A DNA stretch of 64,000 nt. Origin: a virus. Its lineage: Duplodnaviria; Caudoviricetes. The position numbers and the translations under genes are program-made. Positions 10,042-54,492 of the stretch are shown piece after piece (positions within the stretch are counted from its first letter, which is position 1; every line of letters begins with the position of its first letter). The stretch lies in the IMG/VR virus record IMGVR_UViG_3300025838_000032, positions 19,777 to 83,776 of that record. The stretch is one strand, 5' to 3'. The notes beneath the pieces are model-generated. The model made no database searches. It was not told where the DNA came from and saw nothing but the letters and a program-made list of their open reading frames with translations.

Positions 10042-10770
10042 ATGAATTTCGCAGAGGGAAAAGGACCAAAGCAAGCAAAGAAGCCTTACGTCCTGGGACA
10101 ATTTGTAACTATTTATGGCAATGATGGGACGCCAGGTGCCGTAAACCCTGCCAACCCTCCTTATACACCTGTTGTGTCTGGCAGCACCTGGAATGGTGGA
10201 GTGGTCGGATCTTTGAACCCAGGTCTTAATGTCAGCCCATCTAACGTATACGATGTTAGTGTTATATGTGCCCCTGGGTCTAATGAAAGTTTACAAGACC
10301 TAGAATCAACTACAGCTGTCCTCAGTCCTGAAACCGGGTTCTCCGGAAGCTGCGTAGTCTCTTTACAAGCTACTTTAGATCGGTATACTCCAAACCCTTA
10401 TACTACATCTCCATCTGGAGCATACGGTAGCACCAACTGGATAACATTAGGAAGCGTCACCGTTACTGGTAATGGACCTAAGATTATTAATCTTGCCGTC
10501 TCCAGTGGTTACGCGTACCCAGCGTATAGGCTAATCGCAAGCGGTAATTCTGCTACGGGTGGTATTATCGACTGGGTTCTCCCGAATATGTTTATCGATC
10601 TAAGCGCTCAAGGAGTTGGACAAGAGGCCAACTGGATTAATGGTAGCATTGGTCAGCCAAATATCGCCTCTCCTGTGTCTATTACTATATCTGGTGGGCA
10701 AACAAACAATTACAGTAAATCTGCTGTGGCGTACGCCGCTACTGAAAACAACCACGACTATATAGGTTAA
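10042..10770 (+). CDS. Putative virion protein (S/T/G-rich beta domain)
   Basis: 242 aa, AGGAG RBS, several xSG motifs. Confidence 0.65.
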   Translation: MNFAEGKGPKQAKKPYVLGQFVTIYGNDGTPGAVNPANPPYTPVVSGSTWNGGVVGSLNPGLNVSPSNVYDVSVICAPGSNESLQDLESTTAVLSPETGFSGSCVVSLQATLDRYTPNPYTTSPSGAYGSTNWITLGSVTVTGNGPKIINLAVSSGYAYPAYRLIASGNSATGGIIDWVLPNMFIDLSAQGVGQEANWINGSIGQPNIASPVSITISGGQTNNYSKSAVAYAATENNHDYIG

Positions 10771-10779
10771 GGTATTGAC

Positions 10780-10968
10780 ATGGAACGATCACAGAATATA
10801 AGATTAAGTAACATACGCCGTGTAGGTGCGAACTTCGATTTTAATGGTAATCCTATTATTCAGAATACCTCTGGGGGTATTGTTCGTTTTAGCGGCGATA
10901 TTAATACTTATCCATGCGGCCACCAATCGATCCCCGGCGTAGATGCCTGTAGCTGCCAGACTTACTAG
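10780..10968 (+). CDS. Small hypothetical protein
   Basis: 62 aa, fills the gap before the portal; C-terminal Cys cluster. Confidence 0.55.
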   Translation: MERSQNIRLSNIRRVGANFDFNGNPIIQNTSGGIVRFSGDINTYPCGHQSIPGVDACSCQTY

Positions 10969-17969: not shown

Positions 17970-18491
17970 ATGCTGCAACTCAATAGCGTAGCCAACGTTG
18001 GGGTTCACCGTACGTGCACCCCACTGTACGAAAAGTACGAGGCTACACCCTACAACACATTCCTTGACCCCGCCGATACGACTAACATCTACTCGGGTAT
18101 GGTCTTGTACCGTACTGGTCCTGACACCGTAGCCAATGCTAGCGCCGCGACTTCTGTCGTTGGTGCCAAGCCTTTCGGCCTCTCGGCTCTTGACCGTAAC
18201 CCTAACATCGATGATGTTACTCAGGTTGGTGTTAACTCTTGGGCGGTTTGGCTCGGTGGTGCGAACGCGTTCTTCACCATTACGGCTCCCGCGTTTGACA
18301 CGACTCAGTCGTACTCTATCACTACCTCTGGTGTCCGTACTCTTCTGTACACCGCCTCTGGTACTGGTCAGCTTACTTCCGTTTCGGGTGCTGCCACAAC
18401 TCTGGCTGCTGTTCCTGTCGCTGAGCTTATCGATGTTATTAGCCCAACACAAATTGTTGTCCGTCTCGTCCCATTCGGCGCAACAGCCTAA
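17970..18491 (+). CDS. Capsid decoration / minor capsid protein
   Basis: 173 aa beta-rich, AAGGAG RBS, directly upstream of the major capsid gene, high-expression codon bias. Confidence 0.65.
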   Translation: MLQLNSVANVGVHRTCTPLYEKYEATPYNTFLDPADTTNIYSGMVLYRTGPDTVANASAATSVVGAKPFGLSALDRNPNIDDVTQVGVNSWAVWLGGANAFFTITAPAFDTTQSYSITTSGVRTLLYTASGTGQLTSVSGAATTLAAVPVAELIDVISPTQIVVRLVPFGATA

Positions 18492-18514: not shown

Positions 18515-19528
18515 ATGAGTACTATCCTTCCCAATGGCGCTGTTGCCGAGCATCTCGCTCCGCGCACGGCCAAAAAGTCGGACGATTATGTCGCCGGTAT
18601 TGTAGAGGCTCAAGAGCGTCTCGCTGCGGCTACTGGTCGTAAGACTGCCACCCGTGAGGAGAAGCAGCGTCGTCTGGCCGGTGTTCTGGCTGACAAGGAC
18701 AACTACATGGTCCGTTTGGGCCAGGGTATGATCGGTCCTATCCAGCTGAAGCTCCGCTATCAGGGTATGACCCGTAACGTCCTCCTTGAGGATCCGTTAA
18801 CTCCCGGTGTCCCCGTCATGTATGACGTATTGGACGAGTATGGTCAGGCTTACATTCTTTCCGGTAACGAGGGTGAGGTCCGTGTGACTCCCTTCGAAGG
18901 TAAGAAGGTTCCAGTCCGCTTGTTCCGTATTGCCACCTTCCCTCAGATCAAGAAGGAAGACCTGTGGTACCTGCGTGTAAACATCGTTGAGTACGCTCAG
19001 GACATGTCCAAGCAGGCCATCATGATGCAGGAGGACGCCCGCCTTATCACCGTCCTCGAGGCTGCTATCAACAACTACGCTGTTGACCCCAACCACGTAG
19101 TTTCCCCCAACCACATCGTCAACGAGCTCTCGGGTTACATTACTCCTGACTCGATGTACGACCTCGTGGCCCTCATTGAGGTTCACCAGTTGGAGGCTAG
19201 CCGTCTTCTGTTCAACCCCATCGACTACCGTGACCTCTACAAGTGGGACATCAACCAGACTGGTTGGGCCTTCAAGGACCGCGTTGTTGCCGGTGAGCGT
19301 ATTGTTCAGTTCGGTGGCTTCCAGGTTCAGCGTAGCATTGAGGTCCCTCAGGGAACTGTTTACATGACTCCTAGCCCCGAGTTCCTCGGTGTCTTCCCTG
19401 TCATGTACTCGCTCGATGTTGAGGAGAACCACACCCCTGAGAAGTTCCACAAGGGCTGGGTCATGGACGAGCTCGTTTCCGAGATAGTCTTGAATCCACG
19501 TGGCCTTGGCAAGATCGTGAAGGCATGA
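18515..19528 (+). CDS. Major capsid protein (HK97 fold)
   Basis: 337 aa, strongest codon bias in the window; C-terminal GWVMDELVSEIVLNPRG resembles Bxz1-type myovirus capsids (recall). Confidence 0.85.
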   Translation: MSTILPNGAVAEHLAPRTAKKSDDYVAGIVEAQERLAAATGRKTATREEKQRRLAGVLADKDNYMVRLGQGMIGPIQLKLRYQGMTRNVLLEDPLTPGVPVMYDVLDEYGQAYILSGNEGEVRVTPFEGKKVPVRLFRIATFPQIKKEDLWYLRVNIVEYAQDMSKQAIMMQEDARLITVLEAAINNYAVDPNHVVSPNHIVNELSGYITPDSMYDLVALIEVHQLEASRLLFNPIDYRDLYKWDINQTGWAFKDRVVAGERIVQFGGFQVQRSIEVPQGTVYMTPSPEFLGVFPVMYSLDVEENHTPEKFHKGWVMDELVSEIVLNPRGLGKIVKA

Positions 19529-21230: not shown

Positions 21231-21409
21231 TGGCAGTTAAAGTACCACCACACGCTGTAGTGACAACTCAGAGCAAGCCGGGAACTGTTATTGCTCAAGG
21301 GGTTTCCGTCCCAGACGTGAGCAAGCCTACTCCATCATACGTAACAGCAACAATGCACTCGAGCACTGCTCAGTCCGCACAACTCATCAACAGAATAGGT
21401 GATATATAA
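21230..21409 (+). CDS. Small hypothetical protein
   Basis: ATG overlaps upstream TAA (MAVKVPPHAVV); its stop overlaps the next ATG. Confidence 0.6.
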   Translation: MAVKVPPHAVVTTQSKPGTVIAQGVSVPDVSKPTPSYVTATMHSSTAQSAQLINRIGDI

Positions 21410-22404
21410 TGGTTACTCCAAACACCGCTACAGAAATGGCCAACAAGCTCGCGCTTCGTAGCGTTACGCGAGGTGGCGCGAACACATGGTTCGAAGCAAT
21501 TGATCCCGCTATCATGGTAAACGCCGCCGCGACCACGAACGGTCTTGTCGGGCTCTCGGTCCCGACGAACAACACAACGTTCCAGGTAGGTATCACCAGC
21601 GCAATTGCTTCGGGTGTGTTCGCCGTTACCGCCATTACTGGTGCTGGTTCGGGTTCATTCCCTTACACGATCACCTTGACTGGTTCTTCGGCTAGCGCCT
21701 TCTCTACGGGTAGCACGTTTAACGTAGCTGGTGTAACCACTACCACTGGTTATAACCAAGCCTACGTCATCAGCTCGGTAACCTATAGTGGAGCCTCCTC
21801 GGGAGCCACGACGTTTACCGCTTCTGGTACCACGAGTAACGTGGTCACTGGTGCTGCGACACTGACGAACGCCTGGGTGAGTGGTACTGGTTACGGTACT
21901 CTTACGACAACCTTGACCGGAACATCAACCGGGAACAATGTTGCCGCGCTTGTATCTGGTCTAGCTGCTGGGCCGCTGAGTGGTTATACATTCTACGCTA
22001 ATGCCGGAAATGCTAACTACCTATACGACACGACTACCACGCTGGTCATCCCTAGTGGTGCTGCGCTCGGTGTTGTTAATGCCCTAGGTACTGCGCCGGT
22101 TCTTACCTCGCTTGCCCTGAGTGGTACTAATGCCGAGGCGACGACCTACCCCAACTACACAGGTACTCCGAACGCTGTGCCTACGTGGGTAGACGACGCT
22201 ACGGTACACGCTACGCAGGTTGGTTTCAACGGTCTGGCTGTAGCCGCTACCACTCTGAGCGGTACTGGTCTTGTAACCCAGCAACAGGTACGTCAGATCC
22301 AGACCAATGTGTCTGAGACCCAGACGTACGCCGGTTACCAGGCTACCTACAGCGGTAACCTGTACCAGACTGGCCAGAAGAGAACGTACCGTCAGCAAAG
22401 CTAA
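21409..22404 (+). CDS. S/T/G/A-rich virion decoration protein
   Basis: 331 aa, capsid-like codon bias, about 12 SG dipeptides. Confidence 0.7.
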   Translation: MVTPNTATEMANKLALRSVTRGGANTWFEAIDPAIMVNAAATTNGLVGLSVPTNNTTFQVGITSAIASGVFAVTAITGAGSGSFPYTITLTGSSASAFSTGSTFNVAGVTTTTGYNQAYVISSVTYSGASSGATTFTASGTTSNVVTGAATLTNAWVSGTGYGTLTTTLTGTSTGNNVAALVSGLAAGPLSGYTFYANAGNANYLYDTTTTLVIPSGAALGVVNALGTAPVLTSLALSGTNAEATTYPNYTGTPNAVPTWVDDATVHATQVGFNGLAVAATTLSGTGLVTQQQVRQIQTNVSETQTYAGYQATYSGNLYQTGQKRTYRQQS

Positions 22405-22544
22405 TGGAACACTTACCTTTTGTTATAAAGGTTGATGCAGTAATTACTAGAGCCAATGGTGACCGTGAAGACCTCGGCACCATTGGTTCTACTGTATTGG
22501 AACTAGAACGTGATAACACTACTGACATCGAAGACGAGAAGTAG
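22404..22544 (+). CDS. Small protein (46 aa, AVITRANGDREDLGTI)
   Basis: Below the track cutoff; ATG overlaps upstream TAA. Confidence 0.5.
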   Translation: MEHLPFVIKVDAVITRANGDREDLGTIGSTVLELERDNTTDIEDEK

Positions 22545-23115
22545 TTTAGCCAATGCGATAGCAGGATCTGGTTACTCTCTGAGTGTGCCAAAATACCTGG
22601 CTTGGGGTATTGGTGCCGGAGATACTCAATCATCTGATATAGGTCTTTTCTATCCTGTTGGATCACCTATATCTGGAACAGTAAGTGTTATAACTACTTC
22701 TTCTTCTGGAGATACCTTTTTATCTAGTACTTCTTTGACTTCTTCTGGTAGTTATAAGATTACTGAGGTTGGTCTTTTTGACACTAATTCTAGTCCAGCC
22801 GTGGGGTTCTTGTCAAGTCAAGTAAATCCTGGCGATAAAACCATTACCATCAGCGGTTATTCACGCTTCCCAAATACCTTCCCGTTCTTTGTACAGGTCT
22901 ATGAAGAGGTCATGACGGTAATTTCTGGAAATGGTACCAATATCTTCAATGTAATTAGGGGCTCAAACGGCTCTAGTATGTTGATAACGATAATTCCTTC
23001 TCTCACTCCGGTGGTTGGACCAGCCGGGAATATGTTCATGAAGAGCAGCTTCCCAAGCATAAGTCTCGCTCCTGGTGATGGCGTTCAATTTAATATTAGT
23101 GTTCAATTTATTTAG
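22510..23115 (+). CDS. Minor structural protein (fibre-base type)
   Basis: PKYLAWGIGAG and ITEVGLFD motifs are typical of phage fibre/baseplate attachment domains. Confidence 0.6.
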   Translation: MITLLTSKTRSSLANAIAGSGYSLSVPKYLAWGIGAGDTQSSDIGLFYPVGSPISGTVSVITTSSSGDTFLSSTSLTSSGSYKITEVGLFDTNSSPAVGFLSSQVNPGDKTITISGYSRFPNTFPFFVQVYEEVMTVISGNGTNIFNVIRGSNGSSMLITIIPSLTPVVGPAGNMFMKSSFPSISLAPGDGVQFNISVQFI

Positions 23116-23123
23116 GAGCATAT

Positions 23124-23657
23124 ATGGCTAGTAGTTTCAACTCTACATTCTATTTCCCTCAGGAGGGTCTGAACTACCTTCTGAACCTATTCCCGCGAAA
23201 CACCGCTACGATCTCTGGTACGACATACATAGGATTGATTGGTACCCCATGGGCTACAATCAGCGGTTATGTGGCCGCTACCGATGAGCCGATCACACTG
23301 AACTCTGGTACATACACCGTTGCTGAGGTTTCTGGTATGACCGGCTACTCGCGTCAGGCGATTACTTCTGCGACGTGGAACGCTCCGGCGTTCACCACGA
23401 TTAGCATTAACACCAGTACCGGCATCCCTGTCCAGTACACGACTACATCGAGTGGTTATACTTGGACAAATACAGGAACAACTTTCTCCGGTATTAACGG
23501 TATTTTCATCACTCTTGGATCTGGTGTCAACTACACCAGTGCGAGCGGTGCCGTTATTTGGTATGCGCCATTCTCCGACCTCTCAACTGTTACGCTGGCA
23601 TCTGGTGACTCCTTGACCGTAACTCCTACCTGGCAGATGGCTTCTTACCCGTACTAA
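23124..23657 (+). CDS. Minor structural protein
   Basis: EGLNYLL...YIGL...GYSRQAI...VTLASGDSLTVT pattern; about 9 SG in 177 aa. Confidence 0.65.
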   Translation: MASSFNSTFYFPQEGLNYLLNLFPRNTATISGTTYIGLIGTPWATISGYVAATDEPITLNSGTYTVAEVSGMTGYSRQAITSATWNAPAFTTISINTSTGIPVQYTTTSSGYTWTNTGTTFSGINGIFITLGSGVNYTSASGAVIWYAPFSDLSTVTLASGDSLTVTPTWQMASYPY

Positions 23658-23676: not shown

Positions 23677-26403
23677 ATGGCATTGAATATACCCAATATT
23701 GAATCATCGCCATCTTTTGACGCCCAATCTGTAACAGACTACACTGACGTATCCGCTTGGCTGGCTTTGAGCCAGGGTACTGGCGTCATTTCTGGTATGC
23801 AGGTAACGCCAAGTGCTGGTATGACGGTGAGCGTTGCTCCCGGTGCATTCACTATCAACAACGTCCAGCACTCGTATGCTGGTGGCACAGTCACGATCAG
23901 CGGTGCAGCAGCGTTCGATAGAAAAGACATAATAGTTGCCTCGGGTACAACGATATTTGTTGTGTCGGGTACGAACAGCACAGTATCGGGATGGACAAGA
24001 AGCTCGTCTTCCCTGCCACCAGTCAAGCCGGTTATCCCATCTAGCTCTGCTCTAGTCGCAGAGATCTACGTTGGTGCTGCCACCACAACCGTAGCAGCCG
24101 GTAACATCATTGACAAAACTGCCCTGAACGGAATTAGTAATAACTTTTTGCCGACGAGTGGTGGTACCGTTAGTGGTAACCTGGTCGTAGTAAGTGGGTT
24201 CACCGTCAGCGGTACAGTAAACGTAGTTAGTGGGGTTATCAGTACAAACAGTATTCCATTAGTATACGGATCAGGAAACTCCGCGAATGTTCCCAGTGGT
24301 GTAGCAATCGGTTATAAAGCACTTGCCGTGAACACAACATCTGGTATTAATAATATTGCAATAGGTACTACTGCAATGCAGGCTAATACTAGTGGTAGCT
24401 ATAACACTGTAGTAGGTAACCAGGCTAGCTATAGCGGTACAACAGGTGGATATATAACCGCAATTGGTTACCAAGCTGCATATAACAACGTAACAGGTGG
24501 ATATATAACCGCAATTGGTTACCAAGCCGGTCAGTCACAGATAAACAGTTACGGTACATACGTAGGATATCGTGCGGGATCCAACGATACTGGTTCGTAT
24601 AACATTATCATTGGTTATAACATCGGTGGTGGTGCAGGAAGCAACAACGTCGTTGTTGGTGCAGCCGCTACTGTTTCAACCTACAGTGGTTCCTCTGCCA
24701 TTGGTTATGGTGTACAGCTCGGAGGGCACAACAGCACTACTATCGGCTCCAATTCGGTCGGCTCCTCAGGATCCGTAACATTAGGATATTCTTCGAGCAC
24801 TATAGGCGCAACAAACACTGTTGCAATTGGAACAAACATACAAACTGCAGGTGCTTCTAGTGTTATTATGGGCATAAATGCCGGTGGTAACTATGGCACA
24901 AATGCAATGACGATTAATAGTGGTGTTGCAATCGGAGCTTATGCCGGTGGGTACGTCTCGGCGGGAACATCTGCATATGTTAATACCGGGTCGGTGGCAA
25001 TAGGTGCTTATGCTGGTACAAGCATACAGATAAACCCAATAACTGCCGTGGGGTTCCAAGCCGGGTACTCAGCATACGGGCAGTACAACACATATATCGG
25101 ATATAACTCAGGTTATCCCAACGGAACAAACGCAAGTACTCTGGCGATTGGACAAACCCTAGTTGGTTACAACACAGGACAGGCCAACGCCACACAGTCG
25201 AACTATATAACGGCCCTCGGGTACGGAGTAACCGTCGGTGCGTCGGGTGGTGTTGCGATAGGTGTAGACTACGCAGGTAACTCAGCGACCACATCTGTAG
25301 CGAATCAGTTCGTTCTCGGTACTGTCAACCACACGGTGGTTATACCTGGTACATTTGCCGCAAGCGGTGTAGCGACAGTAAGTGGTAGACAAATACTTAC
25401 AATAGTTCCAGGCACCCAGGCGGGTAAGAACTATATCATTAATGGTGCAATGGAAATTGCCCAAAGAGGTACGAGCACATCAGGTTCAACAACAACCGCG
25501 TACGGTCTAGATAGATGGGCTAACAAAGCTACGGTGGCGACTGGTGTTTATTACTCTCAAAGTACTAACCTATACCCGAGTGTCAACCAATATATACAGT
25601 ACTTCCAGCAGGTTGCCGCTTCAGGAACAACGAGTACGACTTGGTATTTAGGACAATCGTTAGAAAACAACATGGCGTTCTCTTTGCAGGGCCAAAATGT
25701 GACTCTGTCGTTCTGGTATAAAATCCCAGTTAACTTTACTAACTCTGTCAACGTAGCTCTGCAATATGCCACCGCCTCGGGTAACCAGAACATGGTTACT
25801 ACATCTGGTACAACAATAGCCGCAAGTACCGGGACAAACATTAGTACATCTACTACTGCTATTACTGCCAACACAAACTGGACATTCGCCCAGGCAACAT
25901 ACGCGGTTCCTTCCGGGGCGCTATCGCTCGGAGTTGTGTTTTCAAGCCTTACGAATACTGTATCTAGCGGTTTATTTCAAGTAACGGCTGTCCAATTAGA
26001 AATCGGTTCGTATGCATCACTTTTCTCAAGAGCAGGAGGAACATACCAAGGAGAGTTGGCGAACTGTCAAAGATATTTCTACCGTGTAGGCGGCAACAAC
26101 ACCTTCGAGCTCATGGGTACCGGTGTATGCACGACAACAGCCAACACGGCTTTCGTTGATATTAAGTTCCCAGTTACAATGAGATCTGCTCCATCTCTTA
26201 CAGCTGCGGCAGCATCTGGGTTCGGCATCATTACCGGTGTAACAACGACCGTAACCGGTATAACTCTGAACAACGCTTCCGTAGACCAAGCCGCTGTACA
26301 GCTCGTAGTTTCGGGCACCGCGACGGTAGCGGGGCAAGGATGTATCCTACAGGCCGGTAACAACACCACCGCAACCCTACAATTCTCGTCGGAGCTGCTA
26401 TAA
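23677..26403 (+). CDS. Long fibre/adhesin with YadA/Hep-Hag-like (AIG) repeats and C-terminal CBM-like domain
   Basis: Repeated xAIGYxA units; NYIINGAMEIAQRG...DRW and ELANCQRYF motifs typical of phage fibre tips. Confidence 0.8.
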   Translation: MALNIPNIESSPSFDAQSVTDYTDVSAWLALSQGTGVISGMQVTPSAGMTVSVAPGAFTINNVQHSYAGGTVTISGAAAFDRKDIIVASGTTIFVVSGTNSTVSGWTRSSSSLPPVKPVIPSSSALVAEIYVGAATTTVAAGNIIDKTALNGISNNFLPTSGGTVSGNLVVVSGFTVSGTVNVVSGVISTNSIPLVYGSGNSANVPSGVAIGYKALAVNTTSGINNIAIGTTAMQANTSGSYNTVVGNQASYSGTTGGYITAIGYQAAYNNVTGGYITAIGYQAGQSQINSYGTYVGYRAGSNDTGSYNIIIGYNIGGGAGSNNVVVGAAATVSTYSGSSAIGYGVQLGGHNSTTIGSNSVGSSGSVTLGYSSSTIGATNTVAIGTNIQTAGASSVIMGINAGGNYGTNAMTINSGVAIGAYAGGYVSAGTSAYVNTGSVAIGAYAGTSIQINPITAVGFQAGYSAYGQYNTYIGYNSGYPNGTNASTLAIGQTLVGYNTGQANATQSNYITALGYGVTVGASGGVAIGVDYAGNSATTSVANQFVLGTVNHTVVIPGTFAASGVATVSGRQILTIVPGTQAGKNYIINGAMEIAQRGTSTSGSTTTAYGLDRWANKATVATGVYYSQSTNLYPSVNQYIQYFQQVAASGTTSTTWYLGQSLENNMAFSLQGQNVTLSFWYKIPVNFTNSVNVALQYATASGNQNMVTTSGTTIAASTGTNISTSTTAITANTNWTFAQATYAVPSGALSLGVVFSSLTNTVSSGLFQVTAVQLEIGSYASLFSRAGGTYQGELANCQRYFYRVGGNNTFELMGTGVCTTTANTAFVDIKFPVTMRSAPSLTAAAASGFGIITGVTTTVTGITLNNASVDQAAVQLVVSGTATVAGQGCILQAGNNTTATLQFSSELL
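24441..24527 (+). repeat. 36-nt direct repeat, 51-nt period (TGGYITAIGYQA x2)
   Basis: aacaggtggatatataaccgcaattggttaccaagc at 24441 and 24492. Confidence 0.9.
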
Positions 26404-38494: not shown

Positions 38495-38901
38495 ACCCGT
38501 ACGTTGTTGAAAAAAGTGAGATAGCGTACTTAACCGGTGTCTTCAATAAGTCTGATCTTAATTTTCTTCAGGAAAAGCTATTAATAGCTGTCACATTGCG
38601 TAAGCGTAAGCAAGAAGCCGAGTTAGAAGAAGCGCATTTTGAACAGAACATGTTCTTGATTAACCCAGAGATGTATCGACAGTACATGAAGAACAAAGAA
38701 GATAACTCTGAGAACGAAGGCATTGCCTGGGGCGCTCCTGAAAGTATTGAAGAGCAACAGGAACTCCAACGTATCTTTGAAGAAATCAATCAGCAGCTTG
38801 ATAGTGATGAAGATAAAAAAGCCAATGAAGAGTTTGTTAATCAACTGGGCATAATGAATATATTCAACGGCATTGATATAGATAAAATTGGGGGTGACTA
38901 A
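38476..38901 (+). CDS. Tail assembly chaperone -1 frameshift extension
   Basis: C CCA AAA heptamer at 38476-38482; the -1 frame is open from 38476 to 38901 (PKRWQLDPYVVEKSEIAYL...) with no ATG near its start. Confidence 0.7.
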   Translation, partial: PKRWQLDPYVVEKSEIAYLTGVFNKSDLNFLQEKLLIAVTLRKRKQEAELEEAHFEQNMFLINPEMYRQYMKNKEDNSENEGIAWGAPESIEEQQELQRIFEEINQQLDSDEDKKANEEFVNQLGIMNIFNGIDIDKIGGD

Positions 38902-41357
38902 TGGCACAAAATGATGGTGTTGAACTAAATTTTGATATGAATGCCAACACCGGGCCCATGCTCGAAGGCATGCAAAGAGTCGCCGCAGTAACAAAACAGA
39001 TCCGTGCAGATATTGAGGCCATGAGCGATGGATTGGATGGTACTATTGATAGAGCAAATAAACTCAGAACCTCTTTTGAAGGTAGCTTAAATCTTGTCGA
39101 TCAGATAAAAGCTGGAATGGATGTTGTAGGAACATTCGCGCAGACTTTTCAAACTGCTCAAAATAACAATACCAATGCCTTATTGGAAATGATGAGAAGC
39201 ACCCGCGCCCTTGGCGGGAATATGAACCAGTTTATGAATATCGCATCGTCTGCTGGGTTTGGTAGGGGGACCCCAGGCTACGGCGGTGTATACACGGGCG
39301 GTATAACTCAGAGCCAAGATTTCAGTAGTTATGCACAAGACCAAGAATCAAACATATCTTCTTCTCCATACGATAGGATTATCAAACGCCGAGCTAAACC
39401 AGCGTCTGGCGGCGGTGCAGGCGGAGGAATCCCGCCAATCTTCACCAGTGGCGGAGAAGTACCCTACGAAGAAGTACCTTACAATGGTCAAGGCCCGAAT
39501 ACAGATGCGATAAATGGCATCTATGGCACCAGGGGGATCAATCTTGGCGGTAACCGACAAGTTCCTATAAAGCCAGCTCAATTGATGATCCAAGATCAAT
39601 TAAAGCAGTACTACCCTAATTTATATGATGACATAGTGGGTAATGGCAAAGAAGGAACCGCTGCTGAGTTCGCGTATAGAAATATGATGTACCAGGCGGG
39701 AAGCCTGATCGGGAGAATCCCTGGCGGCGGAAGAATAATGGGACGCCTTCAGGAGGGTCTCAATAATTATGGCATAAATCTCGATGCTATTAAAGCTTCG
39801 CAAAGAAGCAACACAATCCCCACTGGTAATGTTGATGAGTATGGGAACCCAACATATACCAGGCCGTTCGGCATACCGAATGCTGGTGCAAGCGGTGGCA
39901 TTGCAGACGCTGGTGCAGAAGCAGTGACGCTAAGAATAGCCAACCAAGTATCAAAGATATTTGATTCTAGTGTTGCACAGAATTTTGCGAAATACGCTGG
40001 GTTCGCCGGAGCTGCTGGATCTGTTTACGGGACGCTTTCAGACGTAGCGGGACAAGCCAGACAACTTACGGGATTCGCTCAAGCCCAAGGTAATGCTCTG
40101 GGTATGGTTAATTATGGGCAAAGCGCCGGTCTGTTCGGGCAGGCTTTCCTCAATTCATGGGGTGGTCTGAACCCATTCTTTAGCACGCAACAATCCATGC
40201 AAGCACAGATGAATGGTGCCGCCCTCGGTCTACGTGGAGCAAACTTATCAAATTATGCTAACCAAGCGATGACCGCTCAGACTAAATTTGGAATGGGCGG
40301 ACAGCAGTTCCAGAGTATTATGGGAGCTGGTCTTGGTGTCGGAGTCAACGTTAACCAAAACATGCAGGGCCTCGGTCAAATCCGTCAGTTAGAGGCGAAT
40401 ACACAAACCAGCACCGCTTATGGGAACCAGGCGTATGTTGCGGGGATGCAGTCTAATGCTGGGATGGGTGTTAGCCCAACAGTAGCAGTACAAATGGGTA
40501 TACAGGCCGCTAAATTCGGATCCGGCAATCTTATCGCCCAGTCCTATGGTATGACTGGCCAGGAGGGCCAGGGCACGACGCTTAACAATGCCCTTATGGC
40601 CCAGCAGTTGGGCACATCGTATACTGGTTTGTACGCAGCTGAGCAAAAAGTCGGTGCTGCTGGTCAGGCTAAAGCCCAGAACTCTACCGACGAAGAGATC
40701 CTCTCGTGGTCAGGTATTGACATTACTGCTACGTACAAAGATGAAAATGACTTCAAGGCTAAAAACGGCGACAAAATAATGACTCTTCAGGCGATGCTTC
40801 AATCTGGACAAGTTGGTCAAAAACTTGCTAATGTCGCAAGCACCCCGCAGTCTACAGAAACATGGGCGTGGAGTGTCGTCAGGCAGCATCAGAAACTGAA
40901 TCAAAAGACTAAGAACAGCCCACCAGGATCGGGTTTGGCAAGAATATTTGGGGACGTATCTCACGCTGTTGAACATGCTGTTGGCGGTACATTGAAGACT
41001 GCTGGGAATGCGTTAGAGGCAGCGCAGCATGTAGCAACGGACGTGGGGCTATCTCCAGAATGGCTAGTATCACAATCAGGTTATTCCCATGACACGAACT
41101 CAATAAATAGAAACTTTGACTCTAGCGTAACTGCAACGGGCGATCTTATTAAAGGAGCAGCATCAAGCGCTATTAAAATAGCAGGATCAAGCGCTTTGGA
41201 CCTTTCACAACCGAAAAACATAGCGCATTCAGTAGAAGTAACTTTTAAAGGAGCTGCCGAAAGGCTCTTTAATTCGACAATAAAGCAAGCGACCGCTGGC
41301 AACAACAACGGGTCTCTTCCGCCGAATAAGCAACCAACTCAAAGCCTACCATTTTAA
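38901..41357 (+). CDS. Tape measure protein
   Basis: 818 aa, A/G/Q/M-rich helical, follows the chaperone pair. Confidence 0.8.
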   Translation: MAQNDGVELNFDMNANTGPMLEGMQRVAAVTKQIRADIEAMSDGLDGTIDRANKLRTSFEGSLNLVDQIKAGMDVVGTFAQTFQTAQNNNTNALLEMMRSTRALGGNMNQFMNIASSAGFGRGTPGYGGVYTGGITQSQDFSSYAQDQESNISSSPYDRIIKRRAKPASGGGAGGGIPPIFTSGGEVPYEEVPYNGQGPNTDAINGIYGTRGINLGGNRQVPIKPAQLMIQDQLKQYYPNLYDDIVGNGKEGTAAEFAYRNMMYQAGSLIGRIPGGGRIMGRLQEGLNNYGINLDAIKASQRSNTIPTGNVDEYGNPTYTRPFGIPNAGASGGIADAGAEAVTLRIANQVSKIFDSSVAQNFAKYAGFAGAAGSVYGTLSDVAGQARQLTGFAQAQGNALGMVNYGQSAGLFGQAFLNSWGGLNPFFSTQQSMQAQMNGAALGLRGANLSNYANQAMTAQTKFGMGGQQFQSIMGAGLGVGVNVNQNMQGLGQIRQLEANTQTSTAYGNQAYVAGMQSNAGMGVSPTVAVQMGIQAAKFGSGNLIAQSYGMTGQEGQGTTLNNALMAQQLGTSYTGLYAAEQKVGAAGQAKAQNSTDEEILSWSGIDITATYKDENDFKAKNGDKIMTLQAMLQSGQVGQKLANVASTPQSTETWAWSVVRQHQKLNQKTKNSPPGSGLARIFGDVSHAVEHAVGGTLKTAGNALEAAQHVATDVGLSPEWLVSQSGYSHDTNSINRNFDSSVTATGDLIKGAASSAIKIAGSSALDLSQPKNIAHSVEVTFKGAAERLFNSTIKQATAGNNNGSLPPNKQPTQSLPF

Positions 41358-46637: not shown

Positions 46638-47087
46638 ATGAAGACGATTACAGTTAGCAACGGAGATATACAACTCAGCGGTGGCAAAATACAGTTTGTC
46701 GTAGCCAGTGATAAGCTCGTTCAGGATATAAGAAGCTGGTTGGTAGAGCCCCTCGGGACGGGTTTCACCACCCCCAATTTTGGCAGCTTGCTCCCAGGCA
46801 TGATTGGTAACCCGCAGACGGGATCCACGGTCAGTTCTGTAACGAACGAAATCAATAGAGTTCTACAGCTTTATCAGGGCCAACAGATAATCAATCTACA
46901 ATCAGCTCAAAATTCAGCTACGTTATCTAACTGGAATAGAGATGAAATTATACAAAATATAGTTTCCGTTGATGTTTCCATACAAAATACAACGATTTTG
47001 GCCCAAGTTACCTTATTGACATTGGCTAATAACACTATTAATCTTAATATAACTATCGACAACAACGGAGTTAACGTAAATGGCTGA
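46638..47087 (+). CDS. gp25-like baseplate wedge protein
   Basis: KLVQDIRSWLVEPLGT..PNFGSLL motif. Confidence 0.75.
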   Translation: MKTITVSNGDIQLSGGKIQFVVASDKLVQDIRSWLVEPLGTGFTTPNFGSLLPGMIGNPQTGSTVSSVTNEINRVLQLYQGQQIINLQSAQNSATLSNWNRDEIIQNIVSVDVSIQNTTILAQVTLLTLANNTINLNITIDNNGVNVNG

Positions 47088-49560
47088 TACATCAGGAGTC
47101 CTCGCCAGACTACAGGCCGCATTATCGATATATGACCCATCGTGGGATGTTAGTGTCGGTAGCGCAACATACAAGATACTAGAGTCGGTTGCCCAAGAGA
47201 TCGCTATTGCTAATAACAACTCTACTCTTCAAACATACAGTTACGATATTAACACCAAGTTTGGTGCTGAACTGGATGCTTTCTGTAACCTATTCGGAGT
47301 ATACCGTCAGCTTGGTAAAAGAGCATCAGGTATAGTAACATTCTCCACGAATACACTTGCCAGTAATATCATCGATATACCGATAGGGACCCAAGTCGCT
47401 GTACCGATTGGCGGTAACTACGCTTCTGCAGTATACTTTGCAACCGTAGCGCCAGCTATAATTGGCATAGGTGAAACATCCACGGACGTTCCAGTAGTAT
47501 CAACATTGCCAGGTATAATCGGTAACATTCCTGCCGGTGCCATAACCATGCAGGTAAGCCCTCTTGTTAACATAACGTCAGTAACTAATAATAGCCCGTT
47601 CTCAGGGGGATTAGACCCAGAGAGTGATGTGGCGCTGAGATCTCGCTGGCAAAGTACTGCGTTTAATAACACAACCGGTACGTATGGGAAATACATATTA
47701 ACTGCGCTACAGGATAATAACGTGTCCATGGCCAACGCTGTAGGATCCCAATCCTTTTATTCCGAACAGCTACAGATTAACTCAGTCGTGAGCGGAAGTG
47801 GACCGGCAACGTTCGATTTTGTAGCATACAGTGGAATGGTTGTCAACACATATTCTGGCACTGTTACCTATACTGGTTCTCCAACTGTCGTTGCATTCTC
47901 TGGGTTCGCTGCTGGGACAAGCGGGACAGTTATAGCCTCCGGGATCCAAACGCTTATTAATAACAACTTCCCAAGCTATGGCATAACAGTCGCGGTAACG
48001 CCAGCTACCGGAACAATAACCACCGGGTTGAATATCAACTTCAGTTCCGCCAGCCCATACCGACTTATCCTAGGAAGTGGTAGCACCATACCAGCGAGCG
48101 GTGTTACAACCAGTGGTATAACTACTATTAGTGGTACATCGTTCTATGATTACGTAGTCTCGAACAACCCAGACGTTGGTGTTTCTGGTACACTTTCTTA
48201 CAACACAACTTTTACCGGTTACTTATACCCCCAGGGGAATGAATTAGTTGGCAGCAACCTCAACTCGTTTAATCAGTCAGTCTATGCGAACACCGTTGAT
48301 TATTACTACCCGAATAACGTAACGCCACAGCTGCAATTGACAATGGCCAATACTACGGCTAACCCTTCACTGTTCATCGGCAATACAGTCCAGGTTACTT
48401 CTGAGTATTGTCCGGCATCGAATAGATCAGTGACGATAACAAGCGGAAACTATGTAGATATATTTATCAATGGAACAACGGCTGATCAAGCATATTCACA
48501 AACTGTTTTTAATACAACATTCACCATGAGTGGTGGAGCGTCAGCCCCAAGATACTTGAATGCAGCGAACTACGTAGTGGCCAGCGGTGTTCTCGCATCC
48601 ACACTGGCTACGGTAAGTGGTGATATCTATGTGCCACTTGATTTTCAACCAACGATTAACTTCCCGGCACAAATAGGAACAGCTAATAGTGGCCAAGCAG
48701 ATACTCTGTACTTATACAATAGTTCTAACGGAGTAGGATATACTTACCCAATTGCTTTGAACCCTTATGGATATATAACATTCACTGGAACCACTACTTC
48801 TGGGGCAGTAGCCTCGGGCACGAACTTCCTAGCGGTTAACAACGCTAGTGGCTTTCTGTACCCAGGTCTTGCGCTCGCTAGCGGATTGGCAACATCAGGA
48901 ACATTGAACTATATCAGTTCCGTATCGTCCAGTGGAGTGACTCTGGGCTATCCAGTCCCTATCACTGCAATAACTGGGAGCACCTCAGCCCTATCGTACA
49001 CGATTAGTGGTAAGGCTTTGGTCTATCCACTCTATGATACAACATACAATAGCAATAGTATATTACAAATGACAGGTCTTGCTTTCGATGTATCAACGCC
49101 GCCGACTGGGTGGCCATCTCTCCCAACGAGTAATACATGGATCCAATATAACTATAACTATAATAATGATGTTGTAGTTGTTGACCAGCTCGTTCAACAA
49201 AGCCGACCAATTGGTGTTAATACTCTGGTACACCAGGCAACATTTATTCCAATGATTGTTAATATAACACTTGTTATATCGAATGGGTATAGTCAGGTCA
49301 CAGTACAATCCAATGTCTATAGCGCAATCGCAAATCTGTTTAGTAACTATAACTATCTAGGGACTATATCTTTCTCGAACATAAATAAGACAATCCTGTC
49401 TGTCCCCGGCGTCTCTAACGTCAGAACAACGAGTATTAACACAACAGCTATCGATGGAACGATACTTCTTACAAAGACGAGTGACTTTAACCTGGCGAGC
49501 AACCAACTCCCACAACTTTATGGAATTAATTACACGATTAAGGGAGCTAGCAACTTCTAA
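47080..49560 (+). CDS. Baseplate J-like wedge protein
   Basis: GAELDAFCNLFGVYR, ASGIVTF, GGLDPESDVALRSR, C-terminal ILSVPGVSNV. Confidence 0.85.
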   Translation: MADTSGVLARLQAALSIYDPSWDVSVGSATYKILESVAQEIAIANNNSTLQTYSYDINTKFGAELDAFCNLFGVYRQLGKRASGIVTFSTNTLASNIIDIPIGTQVAVPIGGNYASAVYFATVAPAIIGIGETSTDVPVVSTLPGIIGNIPAGAITMQVSPLVNITSVTNNSPFSGGLDPESDVALRSRWQSTAFNNTTGTYGKYILTALQDNNVSMANAVGSQSFYSEQLQINSVVSGSGPATFDFVAYSGMVVNTYSGTVTYTGSPTVVAFSGFAAGTSGTVIASGIQTLINNNFPSYGITVAVTPATGTITTGLNINFSSASPYRLILGSGSTIPASGVTTSGITTISGTSFYDYVVSNNPDVGVSGTLSYNTTFTGYLYPQGNELVGSNLNSFNQSVYANTVDYYYPNNVTPQLQLTMANTTANPSLFIGNTVQVTSEYCPASNRSVTITSGNYVDIFINGTTADQAYSQTVFNTTFTMSGGASAPRYLNAANYVVASGVLASTLATVSGDIYVPLDFQPTINFPAQIGTANSGQADTLYLYNSSNGVGYTYPIALNPYGYITFTGTTTSGAVASGTNFLAVNNASGFLYPGLALASGLATSGTLNYISSVSSSGVTLGYPVPITAITGSTSALSYTISGKALVYPLYDTTYNSNSILQMTGLAFDVSTPPTGWPSLPTSNTWIQYNYNYNNDVVVVDQLVQQSRPIGVNTLVHQATFIPMIVNITLVISNGYSQVTVQSNVYSAIANLFSNYNYLGTISFSNINKTILSVPGVSNVRTTSINTTAIDGTILLTKTSDFNLASNQLPQLYGINYTIKGASNF

Positions 49561-50535: not shown

Positions 50536-53232
50536 ATGACAATACTCCCAAACAACATCGACCCGTCTAAAGACTATGTGACACCTGGGGTTGACCCCGC
50601 CATGTCCACCAACGGGCTGGTATACAACAAAATTTATGCCCACACTGGTGTTATTGACTCTCTCGGGAATACTACTGTAAACGGGTATGATGACCCGAAC
50701 TTAAATACAGTTAACAACAATAATGGTCTAGTTTCCTTTAGTCCTAAACCACGGGGGTATTGGATCTCCAACACAGATTTTGGCGGACCCAACAGCACAC
50801 CAATCGTATTGACATACAGTTTTGTTAATACTACTTACTATAACAATTTATCTTTCTATGCCCTAAATGTCCCTTGTTACGTTGAGATATTAGACGCTAA
50901 CTATAACCCACTCCCAGGCACTTCAACGTTCATAGTACCGGGTGGTAGCGATATCTTTACTACAACTGACTGGGTGTTGTTAAATTACAATGCCCCCATG
51001 AATCCAAGCCCAGCAACGGTAACTGGTACAAATGGAGTAAGCAACTTTACGTATCCATTGACTTGTAACAATAATATCTATATAAGGATAACAAGAAATA
51101 AGACCGTACAAACATCAAGCCCGATCAATGGGTTATCAAACGTCGCGTACTCTGTCGGTGTAAAAGATTTCCGTATAAAGTTAAATGTCCAGGCACTTCC
51201 TGATATACCAACTACGGTATATAGTGGTACAAATACCGTAACAACACAAAATCGCTTCCGCATTGTAGAGAATTATTCCTATGCCAGCAACCCAGTTTCT
51301 AACATGTTTGTCAACACCTCTTCATACTGGAAGAGCGGGCCACAGCCGGTAAAAGATGCGATTGTTTACTTTTATGTAAAGGTTAGCGACACAATTAGTG
51401 GCACTCCAGTGCCAGCTACAATAAATCGTTTGTATATAGATCCGCTATATAGTAATTGCAAGTTTAATGTCTATTATACTTCGAGTGGTTCCACCGCTCC
51501 GGTAAGTGGGTCTATTGGCGTGGATCCGGGTACGTTCTCTTGGACCCCAATACAAAGAGACTTCACCCTCCGTAAAGGTATCTATGAGATACCAACTACA
51601 GTATGCACCTACTTGAAATTTGAGTTCACTTCACTTGTCCCAGAAGTATATGATCTGCCATTCGATTCTATTAATAGAACAATAAACGTCTTCCCATATG
51701 ACGTAGAAACGTTCTATGAGAACCTAGAGCAAGACATCATCAATGGAAACGCTGTTACATACTCTACGATAGGTAACTCTAATCTACAGACTCAACCACA
51801 AAGAAGCAACCAAATCGGTGGGTCTACTATCTTCGGTGTATCGAACCAAACCATTGGTAATGCGAGCAACTGGCAGAATCTTAGCCAACTAAATAGCTCA
51901 CAGCTCGGCAATACGACTACTAATAACTTGTCCTCAAGCTCGCAGATTGTTGACCCGAGCATTAGTTATAAATTATTAGACGCTAATGGTAATTATAATC
52001 AGTCGTCTTATACCGCTTTCTTGCAGAGACGTTTCCCGGATAATAGAGTCCATAATTATAACCAAATAACTATAAACCAGACATGGCATCAGGCGTACTT
52101 CACTGGAATTAGATACTTAACGGCATTTTATGAAACCGTTTTCGATGACCTAAGGGCGTTGCCAGGAACACTCATAGCCAGTAACTCAACGACTAGTGGT
52201 TTCTCTTCGCAAGACGTTAATTACGTAGGTTTGAACGTTGATGACATAGCCGTTACCCCATGGTTCAATACTGTTGATACTTTTAATAGTTTTAGCATCG
52301 GTGGTCTCACTACAGACTGGCGTAGCTTCCTTACTCAGGGTAATCCTATTAGCACAGATCCTGCTTTGCTGAATGGGATACCGCCAATTTCAACATCTTC
52401 CTCGGGGACCCCAAAATATATCGGTGCTCTTGGATCTAGTTCTATTTATGCCATATCGGGTAACGGATCCGCTTACGGACTAAAGTCTATACCTTATAAC
52501 GCAGCTAATAACTTATTGAGCTACAATGATGCGAACTTCATACCGAACTCAACAATGCCGTATGGTAGTGTAGCGGGGCCATGGACACTTATTTTTGATG
52601 ATGAATTCACTGGTAACTCGCTGAATACTAATGTTTGGGCTCCGAACTGGTTTGGAGAAAGTGGAGTAATGAATAATGTTGTTACTCACTCGGGTAACGT
52701 TTCTGTCTCTACAGCTAGTGGGCTTAATCTTTTGTTGGCGAGTTCTGGTAGCGGTGCCCTTATTAGCTCTAACCCGAATGGCGGGGCTATCTCAGGTTTT
52801 CAGTTCACATATGGTTACGCCGAGGCACAAGTCACATTCCCGAACAACCAGGATTGGAGTTCCTTCTGGACGGATGGACAGAACTGGCCATTGACAGGCG
52901 AGTTCGACATCGCAGAAACTACGGGTGGTGCATCTAACCAGATCTGGGTGGGTAATTATCATTACAGCGTTTCTGGAAGCGCCACATCCAACATCGATCC
53001 GTCGCCACTCCCATCGGGTTACTTAGGATCGTCGCATATCTTTGGTATGGACTGGGAACCAAATCTTGTTAACTTCTACGTTGATGGCGTTCTGCACAGA
53101 ACTATTAGTGGGTCTATAGTCGTAAGCTCTCCACAGTACATCATCCTCAACCACGGCGTATACCCATCCGGCAACGCCACGGGAGTCGGTTCTGTCGTGA
53201 ATGTTCGTTACGTAAGAGTATGGCAGCACTAA
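50536..53232 (+). CDS. Tail/baseplate protein with C-terminal GH16 glycoside hydrolase
   Basis: WTLIFDDEF...FTYGYAEA...FW...WP..GEFDIAE (ExDxxE)...HIFGMDW..YVDG...YVRVWQ. Confidence 0.8.
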   Translation: MTILPNNIDPSKDYVTPGVDPAMSTNGLVYNKIYAHTGVIDSLGNTTVNGYDDPNLNTVNNNNGLVSFSPKPRGYWISNTDFGGPNSTPIVLTYSFVNTTYYNNLSFYALNVPCYVEILDANYNPLPGTSTFIVPGGSDIFTTTDWVLLNYNAPMNPSPATVTGTNGVSNFTYPLTCNNNIYIRITRNKTVQTSSPINGLSNVAYSVGVKDFRIKLNVQALPDIPTTVYSGTNTVTTQNRFRIVENYSYASNPVSNMFVNTSSYWKSGPQPVKDAIVYFYVKVSDTISGTPVPATINRLYIDPLYSNCKFNVYYTSSGSTAPVSGSIGVDPGTFSWTPIQRDFTLRKGIYEIPTTVCTYLKFEFTSLVPEVYDLPFDSINRTINVFPYDVETFYENLEQDIINGNAVTYSTIGNSNLQTQPQRSNQIGGSTIFGVSNQTIGNASNWQNLSQLNSSQLGNTTTNNLSSSSQIVDPSISYKLLDANGNYNQSSYTAFLQRRFPDNRVHNYNQITINQTWHQAYFTGIRYLTAFYETVFDDLRALPGTLIASNSTTSGFSSQDVNYVGLNVDDIAVTPWFNTVDTFNSFSIGGLTTDWRSFLTQGNPISTDPALLNGIPPISTSSSGTPKYIGALGSSSIYAISGNGSAYGLKSIPYNAANNLLSYNDANFIPNSTMPYGSVAGPWTLIFDDEFTGNSLNTNVWAPNWFGESGVMNNVVTHSGNVSVSTASGLNLLLASSGSGALISSNPNGGAISGFQFTYGYAEAQVTFPNNQDWSSFWTDGQNWPLTGEFDIAETTGGASNQIWVGNYHYSVSGSATSNIDPSPLPSGYLGSSHIFGMDWEPNLVNFYVDGVLHRTISGSIVVSSPQYIILNHGVYPSGNATGVGSVVNVRYVRVWQH

Positions 53233-53253
53233 AGAGTAAATGGTAATTATCTA

Positions 53254-54492
53254 ATGGCAACTTATAACTGGTATGCAGTCAGCAGTGGGACAGCTATACA
53301 TGGAACATCTGTATCGTGGAGCGGAGCAGTCTCTTCTACTTTAAGTGGAACGGGCACTGCCAGTGGCATAACCGCTAGTGGCGGAGCATCTAACAACGTA
53401 ATAGCGTATAACTTCACCATACCAAATGTTTTCATGGCGAGCGGCACATCAAACTGGCAAACACAGCTCGGAGGCCCTGCAGTTGGTGTCGTGGGATATG
53501 CGAGCTATGTCCCCATGAGCGGGGTTAATTACTACTTCCTCGTTAACCTGCAGTCTTCAGGTACAACAAACGTAACAATGTTTACTCAGTTTATAAACCC
53601 AGCCAATGGTTCTGTGATCTCTGGCACTGTTGTAAGCGGGAGCACCGTATCATTATCTGCGGCATCAGGAACCGCCATCATAACCGCTACGGGGACCAAC
53701 TATAACAAGAGTATACCGAGCAACACAATACAACTTGTTTTGAGTGGTTCTAATACTGTTCCTTATAACGTATACGAGTTTGGTATCTATAACTCACCAA
53801 CAACTCTCTGGAGCAGCCCTTCTAACAGAACTAACATGAGAATTGGTGGCGTAGCCAGAGTCTTCTTGCCGACTACTAATAATGGTACGTATAGGGCTAG
53901 CTTGTTAGCAACGGATTCTAACAACAACGTTAGTGAGATTGCCTACAAGATTTATCAGCCGGGAACGATGCCGCTCAACTCATGGTTTGATATTGAGCTA
54001 ACGAGCTATACAGCGTATAACTACATCATGTTCACGATGCAGATCCAACAAACCAATCTACTGGTTACCGAAGTCTTTTATACCAGTATGCTCGCACCAT
54101 TCTACCACCCAGTCCGTTATGAGTACACAAACATTAGTGGTAATAATATCAACGGCACAACTGGGTGGTACCCGATCACAACCGGCATCAATAATCCTGA
54201 TTACTTTATTAGTACCGTGTCAGGTTTGCCAGCCAGTGGTATACAGGTGAGAATGACGGCTCTTGATCCATATATTTTTATATCTGGGGTAAGCGTCGTT
54301 CCTTACTATAAGCAGAACCCATATTATGCCGGATTGGAAATCAATTACCTGGGTACAAGTAAAACAAACGAGCTAAGTAAGCGCGTTTATCTTGACAATA
54401 AGCCTTATTTCCAACTCAATCAAGATATATACCCATCGAAGTTCAAAATCAATAGAATCGCTGGCACCGTTACCTCATATCAGATTGATTGA
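53254..54492 (+). CDS. Minor tail / baseplate protein
   Basis: 412 aa beta-rich, about 16 SG dipeptides. Confidence 0.6.
   Translation: MATYNWYAVSSGTAIHGTSVSWSGAVSSTLSGTGTASGITASGGASNNVIAYNFTIPNVFMASGTSNWQTQLGGPAVGVVGYASYVPMSGVNYYFLVNLQSSGTTNVTMFTQFINPANGSVISGTVVSGSTVSLSAASGTAIITATGTNYNKSIPSNTIQLVLSGSNTVPYNVYEFGIYNSPTTLWSSPSNRTNMRIGGVARVFLPTTNNGTYRASLLATDSNNNVSEIAYKIYQPGTMPLNSWFDIELTSYTAYNYIMFTMQIQQTNLLVTEVFYTSMLAPFYHPVRYEYTNISGNNINGTTGWYPITTGINNPDYFISTVSGLPASGIQVRMTALDPYIFISGVSVVPYYKQNPYYAGLEINYLGTSKTNELSKRVYLDNKPYFQLNQDIYPSKFKINRIAGTVTSYQID

Follow-up and report, generated by a model that had tools for sequence, protein, structure and literature searches.

Ser-Gly excess in the virion proteins of an uncultured Bxz1-like myovirus co-occurs with a GT4-family glycosyltransferase gene and points to a candidate O-glycosylation sequon

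The window analysed here, a 64,000-nucleotide stretch of DNA (bases 19777-83776 of an 83.8-kb IMG/VR-type virus record, G000, rated ~53% complete), carries the morphogenesis genes of an uncultured, freshwater Bxz1-like myovirus, in whose virion proteins serine is followed by glycine (Ser-Gly, SG) considerably more often than composition predicts. This excess is confirmed; it is Ser-specific, is restricted to virion proteins, lies in a recognisable sequence context and co-occurs among relatives with a gene for a GT4-family retaining glycosyltransferase, located at 58172-59464 of the window and referred to below as GT4. From comparative sequence analysis we propose that SG is a candidate O-glycosylation sequon read by GT4, which is the best single explanation of the data, is partly supported, and in our judgement has about an even chance of being correct.

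The size of the excess was determined using SG and GS expectations derived from each protein's own composition, combined with a per-protein test of 1000 composition-preserving shuffles. Across the 38 open reading frames (ORFs) of the virion module (10042-54492), SG occurs 229 times against 116.9 expected (observed/expected, O/E, 1.96; z 10.4), and the reversed dipeptide GS, found 108 times, is at expectation. SG is the top dipeptide outlier of the module by a wide margin, followed by Gly-Thr at 1.53, and in seven window proteins its count was reached by none of the 1000 shuffles, with z up to 7 per protein. A sequence-only reading of the window had claimed that the bias is order-specific and goes beyond richness in Ser and Gly, in agreement with the shuffles and with GS at expectation, and all of its per-protein SG and GS counts reproduce exactly. 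Window ORFs outside the virion set reach an O/E of 1.41 (34 vs 24). The baseline for SG is however not 1.0: bacterial proteins of 15 unrelated loci give 1.26 (GS 1.01), and control phages 0.97-1.35. With a background of ~1.25 for SG, and ~1.0 for GS, the true excess is therefore ~1.5-fold rather than 2-fold. The proteins that carry it, and three controls, are listed below with SG/GS counts and, where relevant, the SG expectation.

47080..49560, + strand: baseplate J / wedge protein, 826 amino acids (aa); PHROG 6 baseplate wedge subunit (E 2.6e-46); 27/8, expected 8.6, count reached in 0 of 1000 shuffles; 11 of the SG lie in residues 225-362
53254..54492, + strand: fibre-type protein of no recognised family, 412 aa; 16/3, expected 4.2; no Pfam or PHROG match
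50536..53232, + strand: large tail fibre/baseplate protein, 898 aa; 18/12, expected 8.5; no PHROG match
34861..36423, + strand: tail sheath, 520 aa; 13/5; PHROG 2839 tail sheath over residues 245-510
23677..26403, + strand: long fibre, 908 aa; 30/12, expected 14.1; PHROG 4492 tail fiber protein
21409..23657, + strand: three small virion-module proteins (21409-22404, 12/4; 22510-23115, 6/5; 23124-23657, 177 aa, 9/1); no family match
30191..31135, + strand: virion structural protein, 314 aa; 11/3; PHROG 2557 virion structural protein
17970..18491, + strand: head-associated (decoration-type) protein adjoining the capsid gene; 4/0; PHROG 2783
18515..19528, + strand: major capsid, SG-poor control; 2/0; PHROG 2522
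36433..36906, + strand: tail tube-type protein, control; 0 SG; PHROG 2756
38901..41357, + strand: tape-measure-position protein, control; 8/7, expected 8.3

Tube, capsid, portal and tape measure are flat for SG, and the controls chosen in the sequence-only reading hold (tail tube 0 SG, major capsid 2/0, helicase 3/1, tape measure 8/7). As that reading had also stated, the SG of the sheath are confined to its first ~290 residues: all 13 are found at residues 16-291, leaving the conserved C-terminal core free of them. The proteins at 23124 and 21409 have homologues in G005, a GT4-positive relative, and none in the GT4-less relatives G001 and G002. Two further ORFs located 5' of the portal gene, 1772-3214 and 3846-6242, have SG/GS counts of 6/2 and 11/3, with ~8 SG expected in total, hence the bias reaches beyond 10042-54492. 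A common domain family or internal repeats were considered as a source of SG in the window proteins and rejected, as the SG-rich proteins share no homology and contain no internal repeats detectable by BLAST at E 0.01.

The bias acts on protein and not on DNA. Hexamers of the SG type number 229 in the coding frame, the two remaining sense frames have 46 and 87 and the antisense strand 78-90, and the Ser codons used at SG are mixed, with both codon families present. Enrichment in the coding frame alone together with mixed codons indicates bias or selection at the protein level, and a DNA-level cause was rejected on these grounds. Among X-Gly pairs, moreover, SG alone is enriched, with TG, NG, DG, AG and PG at expectation. 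The surrounding residues follow the pattern [T/S]-[A/V/I/L]-S-G-[T], i.e. Thr or Ser at -2, Ala, Val, Ile or Leu at -1 and Thr at +2: 51% of window SG have A/V/I/L at -1 against a background of 29%, and the tripeptides SGT and ASG are each ~five-fold above expectation. From -5 to +6 the commonest residues are T, A, V, I, S, G, N, P, Y and L, with D and E outside the seven commonest at every position. Successive SG are spaced 5-12 residues apart, and their flanks are typical of beta-strands. The preference at -1 is common to G000, G005 and the siphovirus-like contig G006 (51-52% of sites vs a 29-30% background), compared to 0.8-1.3 times background in twelve other phages.

Among Bxz1-like relatives, the excess goes together with GT4. 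A helicase-anchored scan of IMG/VR yielded 38 contigs, of which 10 kb on each side were considered and SG was scored in the baseplate/fibre genes. All 35 relatives with a helicase identity of at least 64% carry a GT4 orthologue (60-82% identical) and display SG O/E values of 1.4-2.6, with GS at 0.7-1.4; in L034 and L036, which are without GT4, SG reaches 1.1-1.2, equal to GS. G001, to which locus L034 belongs, is a complete genome of 124.7 kb that has terminal repeats; its capsid and that of the window are 91% identical, and protein and Pfam searches detected no GT4 in this genome. GT4 is likewise absent from G002. The virion modules of the two contain 157 SG and 156 GS against 116 expected (G001), i.e. 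no SG asymmetry, and 106 SG and 122 GS against 103 expected (G002). Equal SG enrichment in close relatives lacking glycosyltransferases, which the sequence-only reading had named as telling against it, was thus not observed, and the co-variation with glycosyltransferase content that it had suggested looking for is favourable for the gene at 58172-59464. Its attribution of SG modification to the operon at 57489-63539 narrows to the GT4 gene, which tracks the excess when the operon in its entirety does not. Relatives that retain GT4 alone of the window's sugar genes (L001, L007-L009, L028) have the full excess (SG O/E 2.2-2.5), and the accessory sugar genes at 59394..63539 (+ strand) vary among relatives when the SG excess does not. 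Since G001 possesses a GT2 without SG asymmetry, the correlate is GT4 and not the operon, and 'any glycosyltransferase' was rejected as the correlate. The GT2-family gene of G001 (33698-34963, minus strand, 421 aa) is part of the virion module, whose proteins have no outstanding dipeptide. GT4 is furthermore the sole recognisable enzyme among the G000 genes that are common with G005 and absent from G001 and G002, and the only one of these clade-specific genes also present in G006.

Control phages provide the reference, here given as O/E values.

Bxz1 (virion module): SG 1.05, GS 0.96
Settecandela (virion module): SG 1.22, GS 1.05
E3 (50-kb virion region): SG 1.33, GS 0.95
Pupper (50-kb virion region): SG 1.17, GS 0.86
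Stormageddon (50-kb virion region): SG 1.28, GS 1.10
Myrna (30-110 kb): SG 1.16, GS 1.04
T4 (whole genome): SG 1.11, GS 1.02

SG is the leading dipeptide in none of these seven phages. Over all control sets, comprising four virion modules (G001, G002, Bxz1, Settecandela) plus seven additional data sets from control phages, SG O/E ranges from 0.97 to 1.35, and SG heads the dipeptide list in G001 only, tied with GS. Beyond the Bxz1-like group, GT4 has more than 1100 homologues, mostly metagenomic. A siphovirus-like lineage (G006 / G014 C23 / L046) carries a GT4 49-51% identical to that of the window together with a homologue of the ORF at 57489, the pair lying in an island of GroEL, GT2 and methyltransferase genes directly upstream of terminase and portal. 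Its virion module contains 89 SG and 50 GS against 44 expected (O/E 2.0), clearly in the context seen in the window. A second siphovirus lineage (G016 / L098), with a GT4 ~51% identical directly upstream of terminase, has 62 SG and 46 GS against 36.5 expected (O/E 1.7) and a weaker context enrichment, ~1.3-fold at -1. Three lineages with close GT4 orthologues hence exceed every control, and the link weakens with divergence of the enzyme. In the GT4 tree, branches are short for the main clade, the G006 group and P0114 and long for the non-enriched carriers, with the order among the groups not settled by the tree. In TJE1 and the siphovirus lineages the island adjoins genes for packaging and the head, a placement that would fit a virion-related role. 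A Cpn60/GroEL gene heads the glycosylation island, before GT2, methyltransferases and GT4, in L046 (4232-5779) and L098 (3468-5060). GT4-island phage contigs of 43-44 kb (L070 / G014 C23; L077 / G013 C8) are binned in 'Patescibacteria group' metagenome-assembled genomes, which is either a host clue or mis-binning; G014 C23 is identical in ORFs and SG counts to the IMG/VR record G006, a provirus by the IMG/VR classification.

Comparison of orthologues demonstrates that individual sites turn over while their number is kept. In 24 GT4-positive contigs, the J orthologues contain 16-32 SG against 7-11 expected. Of the 27 sites in the window J protein, 10-16 are common with orthologues of 54-60% identity and 3-6 with orthologues of 38-40% identity, which themselves have 16-22 SG against 7-9 expected, the apparent turnover being inflated by alignment error in variable regions. 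Ser placed before universally conserved Gly columns was rejected as the source of the excess, as the frequency of Ser at Gly columns conserved with GT4-less orthologues shows no meaningful difference (11.7% in GT4-positive phages vs 9.7%), which locates the excess in non-conserved regions. In an AlphaFold2 model of J of moderate confidence (predicted local distance difference test, pLDDT, 68), coil accounts for 16 SG, strand for 8 and helix for 3; 41% of SG lie between two strands compared to 40% in the background, without preference for hairpin turns, and several occupy such turns (residues 251, 259, 351 and 618). A generic beta-turn preference was rejected, as NG, DG, TG and PG are not enriched and the SG of the model lie between strands at background frequency. 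Turnover at a maintained number, taken with the J model, speaks against turns that are obligatory at set positions and in favour of variable regions in which the number of sites is kept up. The possibility of obligatory beta-turns, raised with the original proposal, is accordingly weakened. The regular repeats in fibres of relatives indicate that SG is also able to belong to a structural unit. Two such repeat proteins were noted. G005 (contig of L019) encodes at 83064-89237 on the minus strand a 2057-aa fibre with 103 SG and 23 GS, mostly in 7- or 14-residue repeats of the type N-I-A-T-L-S-G-Q, which would form a bottle-brush fibre if glycosylated and could equally be a structural repeat. L070 encodes at 16473-19142 (16093-18762 in G006), in a siphovirus-like contig and just 3' of portal and MuF-type genes, an 889-aa protein without PHROG match, composed, judged by eye, of ~20-residue units S-G-T-x-N/H-x-x-I/V-D-N-F/Y-P-T-x-Q-T-V.

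The candidate SG-reading enzyme and its neighbours, with assignments from Pfam for GT4 and from Pfam and NCBIfam for the accessory sugar genes, are as follows.

57489..58187, + strand: partner ORF, faintly GT2-like (GT2/GT-A), 232 aa; overlaps the GT4 start by 16 nucleotides
58172..59464, + strand: GT4-family retaining glycosyltransferase, candidate SG-reading enzyme, 430 aa; PF00534, PF13692
59394-60227, + strand: GT17-like gene
60422-61408, + strand: SDR epimerase/reductase
61381-62040, + strand: methyltransferase-like ORF
62042-62869, + strand: second SDR
62862-63539, + strand: GT2

GT4 matches PF00534 at 41.1 bits (cut-off 26.4) and PF13692 at 38.1 bits (cut-off 27), both above threshold. 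An E-x7-E motif in the C-terminal domain is a feature of GT4 enzymes, and here E305 and E313, within G304-E-G-W-G-L-x-x-T-E313, are invariant in 27 homologues. The AlphaFold2 model (pLDDT 87.4; predicted template modelling score, pTM, 0.87) has a GT-B fold of two Rossmann-like domains, with 3oy2 (chlorella-virus B736L), MshA, BshA, GlgM and PimA as best Foldseek matches, all at E below 1e-11. No acceptor-binding insertion or extra domain stood out in the model. The partner ORF is found beside GT4 in part of the clade, is 37% identical in G006 and is lacking in roughly one of every two GT4-positive relatives.

We propose the following mechanism. The Ser of SG, typically within [T/S]-[A/V/I/L]-S-G-[T], would serve as O-glycosylation acceptor, at sites exposed on variable, outward-facing parts of the sheath, baseplate, fibre and head-decoration proteins. 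The conserved, soluble GT4 would act in the host cytoplasm during infection, adding the first sugar to virion proteins that are folded or still folding, and the variable neighbours (the 57489 partner, the GT17-like protein, the GT2, the two SDR proteins and the methyltransferase) would produce and attach the later ones. Selection would in that case bear on how many sites a protein has and not on where they are, giving tail and fibres a glycan coat. In a wider form of this picture, a phage-specific GT4 clade would read the short sequon [T/S]-[A/V/I/L]-S-G-[T] and cover entire tails, baseplates and fibres with O-glycans. Enzyme and sequon would have passed together between myoviruses and siphoviruses of unrelated lineages, and selection would maintain site number instead of position, much as the glycan shields of animal viruses shift. 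We consider this wider form tentative and somewhat below evenly balanced.

The main rival holds that SG is a lineage-specific structural or compositional habit of variable, beta-rich outer domains and fibre repeats, where it would aid folding or trimer packing at strand edges, in loops and in the turns of repeats, with GT4 co-inherited and acting on the host envelope, on DNA or on a few specific proteins. The spacing of 5-12 residues and the strand-like flanks agree with such a habit, as do the SG-containing regular repeats of the G005 and G006 fibres and the SG at hairpin turns of the J model. It is however Ser alone that is favoured before Gly, when the usual turn formers Asn, Asp, Thr and Pro are at expectation, and the homologous virion modules of G001, G002, Bxz1 and Settecandela are without excess. 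The excess moreover extends over many proteins without detectable homology, its positions are not conserved when its count is, the J-model SG lie between strands at background frequency, and unrelated siphovirus lineages with the same GT4 show it too, G006 clearly in the same context. We therefore regard a structural origin as unlikely, if still a serious contender. Improbable, in our view, is that SG marks another modification or interaction, exerted by a host or unrecognised phage kinase, an acyl- or phospho-glycosyl transferase, a chaperone or an assembly factor, with an indirect link to GT4. A virion-wide shift in one clade does suggest a trans-acting factor, whose identification as GT4 comes from co-occurrence, and the clade has several specific ORFs without known function in a G000 record little more than half complete; against this, no other enzyme family was recognised among the clade-specific genes, and GT4 is the only such gene also found in the siphovirus lineage that shares the motif. 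An artefact of DNA or composition, through codon-pair bias, an oligonucleotide motif or the abundance of Ser and Gly (each ~9% of residues in these proteins), is contradicted by the shuffles, by GS, by the confinement of the hexamers to frame 0 and by the use of both Ser codon families, and is very hard to credit.

Several observations weigh against SG being a glycosylation sequon read by GT4, and in part favour the structural alternative. The Bxz1-like group represents one phylogenetic contrast, the GT4-positive clade against that of G001 and G002, so that shared ancestry could explain the co-occurrence; a wider helicase-profile scan returned essentially the same 38 contigs plus one and no further GT4-less sisters. 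More distant carriers of GT4 score inside the control range or close to it: TJE1 (39% identical) at 1.31, G013c8 (47%) at 1.37, G012c1 (39%) at 1.44 with GS at 1.23, and cyanophages at 0.97-1.31, the distant carriers scored being TJE1, G013c8, G012c1, S-CBS4, S-EIVl and Mae-JY09. Much of the signal in relatives stems from tandem repeats in which SG may be structural, as in the fibres of G005 and G006, and 27 of the G006 SG lie in the one repeat-built 889-aa protein. The Ser of SG is not significantly better conserved than other Ser (0.45 vs 0.40, p 0.12), and the frequency of Ser at conserved Gly columns given above is barely higher in GT4-positive phages. No depletion of SG was seen in the non-virion proteins of GT4-positive phages. 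Finally, the generic GT-B likeness of the model and its lack of an acceptor-binding insertion make a protein, cell-wall or DNA acceptor all possible for GT4.

The window contains on its + strand a full myovirus morphogenesis module (portal, major capsid, sheath, tube-type protein, tape-measure-position protein, baseplate J and fibres), followed 3' by an SNF2 helicase, an Rpf-like protein (resuscitation-promoting factor), WhiB and the sugar operon. A tblastn comparison with phages gives its major capsid 64% identity to the capsids of Bxz1-type cluster C mycobacteriophages, of Rhodococcus phage E3 and of Gordonia phages. Together with WhiB, Rpf and a GC content of 45%, this identifies a Bxz1-like phage whose host is probably a low-GC aquatic actinobacterium. 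The Rpf-like ORF and the WhiB regulator are located at 56441-56767 and 57118-57525, between helicase and sugar operon, and no match to WhiB was obtained in G001 or G002 at a tblastn E of 1e-3. A late-promoter motif, TGTAAW-N18-TAG, has six sites, none in front of the glycosyltransferase operon. The portal protein (10981-14496, 1171 aa) matches the portal PHROG only over residues 514-1068, and residues ~110-514 match endonuclease- and ribonucleotide reductase (RNR)-type PHROGs, as judged from which it may carry an intein; its orthologues measure 780 aa in G005 and 1173 aa in G001.

Among phages, glycosylated virions have been described for a few mycobacteriophages, and a sequence rule predicting the modified residues was not found in the literature searched. 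If SG within the context described is indeed what this GT4 clade modifies, glycosylated virion proteins become predictable from sequence in many uncultured phages, the enzyme-sequon pair represents a small cytoplasmic O-glycosylation tool, and the role of a tail glycan coat in aquatic environments, towards proteases, grazers, non-specific adsorption or host defences, becomes testable. If SG is structural instead, the data reveal an unexplained and strongly lineage-specific rule of Ser before Gly in phage tail domains.

In animal proteoglycans, the xylosyltransferase uses a Ser-specific acceptor followed by Gly. The analogy that the sequence-only reading drew to this xylose/glycosaminoglycan system fails, as the acidic flanks of the proteoglycan sequon are not seen here, where T, A, V and I surround the site; no xylosyltransferase-type family is among the Pfam and NCBIfam matches of the operon proteins.

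Closer in context are the mycobacteriophages Che8, Corndog and Myrna, whose virions were reportedly found by Freeman et al. in 2023 to be glycosylated by phage-encoded glycosyltransferases. The window resembles them in its actinobacteriophage setting (WhiB, Rpf-like protein, a capsid 64% identical to those of Myrna's cluster C), in phage-encoded glycosyltransferase genes and in virion proteins as proposed targets, here sheath, baseplate and fibres. Their virion enzymes are not homologous to the window GT4: a tblastn search of 50,697 phage records with GT4 returned 12 matches, none to a mycobacteriophage, and PF00534 is absent from Myrna, Bxz1 and Settecandela. A passage of PMC12363180, citing Freeman 2023, gives virions of Myrna (cluster C) and of two other mycobacteriophages as glycosylated; at an SG O/E of 1.16, the Myrna enzymes would thus recognise something other than SG. 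A phage sequon of the present kind was not found in the literature searched. B736L (PDB 3oy2), the best structural match of GT4 (E 1.4e-17, TM 0.73-0.80), is likewise virus-encoded; it is 17% identical, and its entry, titled 'putative glycosyltransferase', carries no acceptor information.

Among bacterial systems, GtfA/GtfB and SdgA/SdgB of Gram-positive adhesins employ a retaining GT4 enzyme, sometimes with an adjacent partner, on many serines in the cytoplasm, and the 2057-aa SG-repeat fibre of G005 would be a substrate analogous to the serine-rich and Ser-Asp repeat proteins. GT4 does not belong to these equivalogs, scoring 18.3 bits with TIGR02918 (cut-off 574.6), 15.7 with NF047881 (SdgB; 800) and 15.0 with NF047880 (800); the similarity is confined to the generic C-terminal GT4 domain, and the partner at 57489, 232 aa and faintly GT2-like, does not resemble the GT-B-like, non-catalytic GtfB. 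TibC and AAH, acting on TibA and AIDA-I, are bacterial autotransporter heptosyltransferases (BAHTs), iron-finger dodecamers using ADP-heptose, in contrast to the plain GT4 GT-B protein of the phage, and no BAHT model is among the NCBIfam matches of the eight operon-region proteins (56441-63539). TibC is a cytoplasmic enzyme that heptosylates Ser and not Thr on the TibA beta-helix, where one of two mapped serines, Ser-313, precedes Gly as counted along the printed peptide (PMC4358343). The two systems would be alike in a cytoplasmic enzyme and in many Ser on loops of a beta-rich surface protein, flanked in both by hydrophobic or hydroxylated strands.

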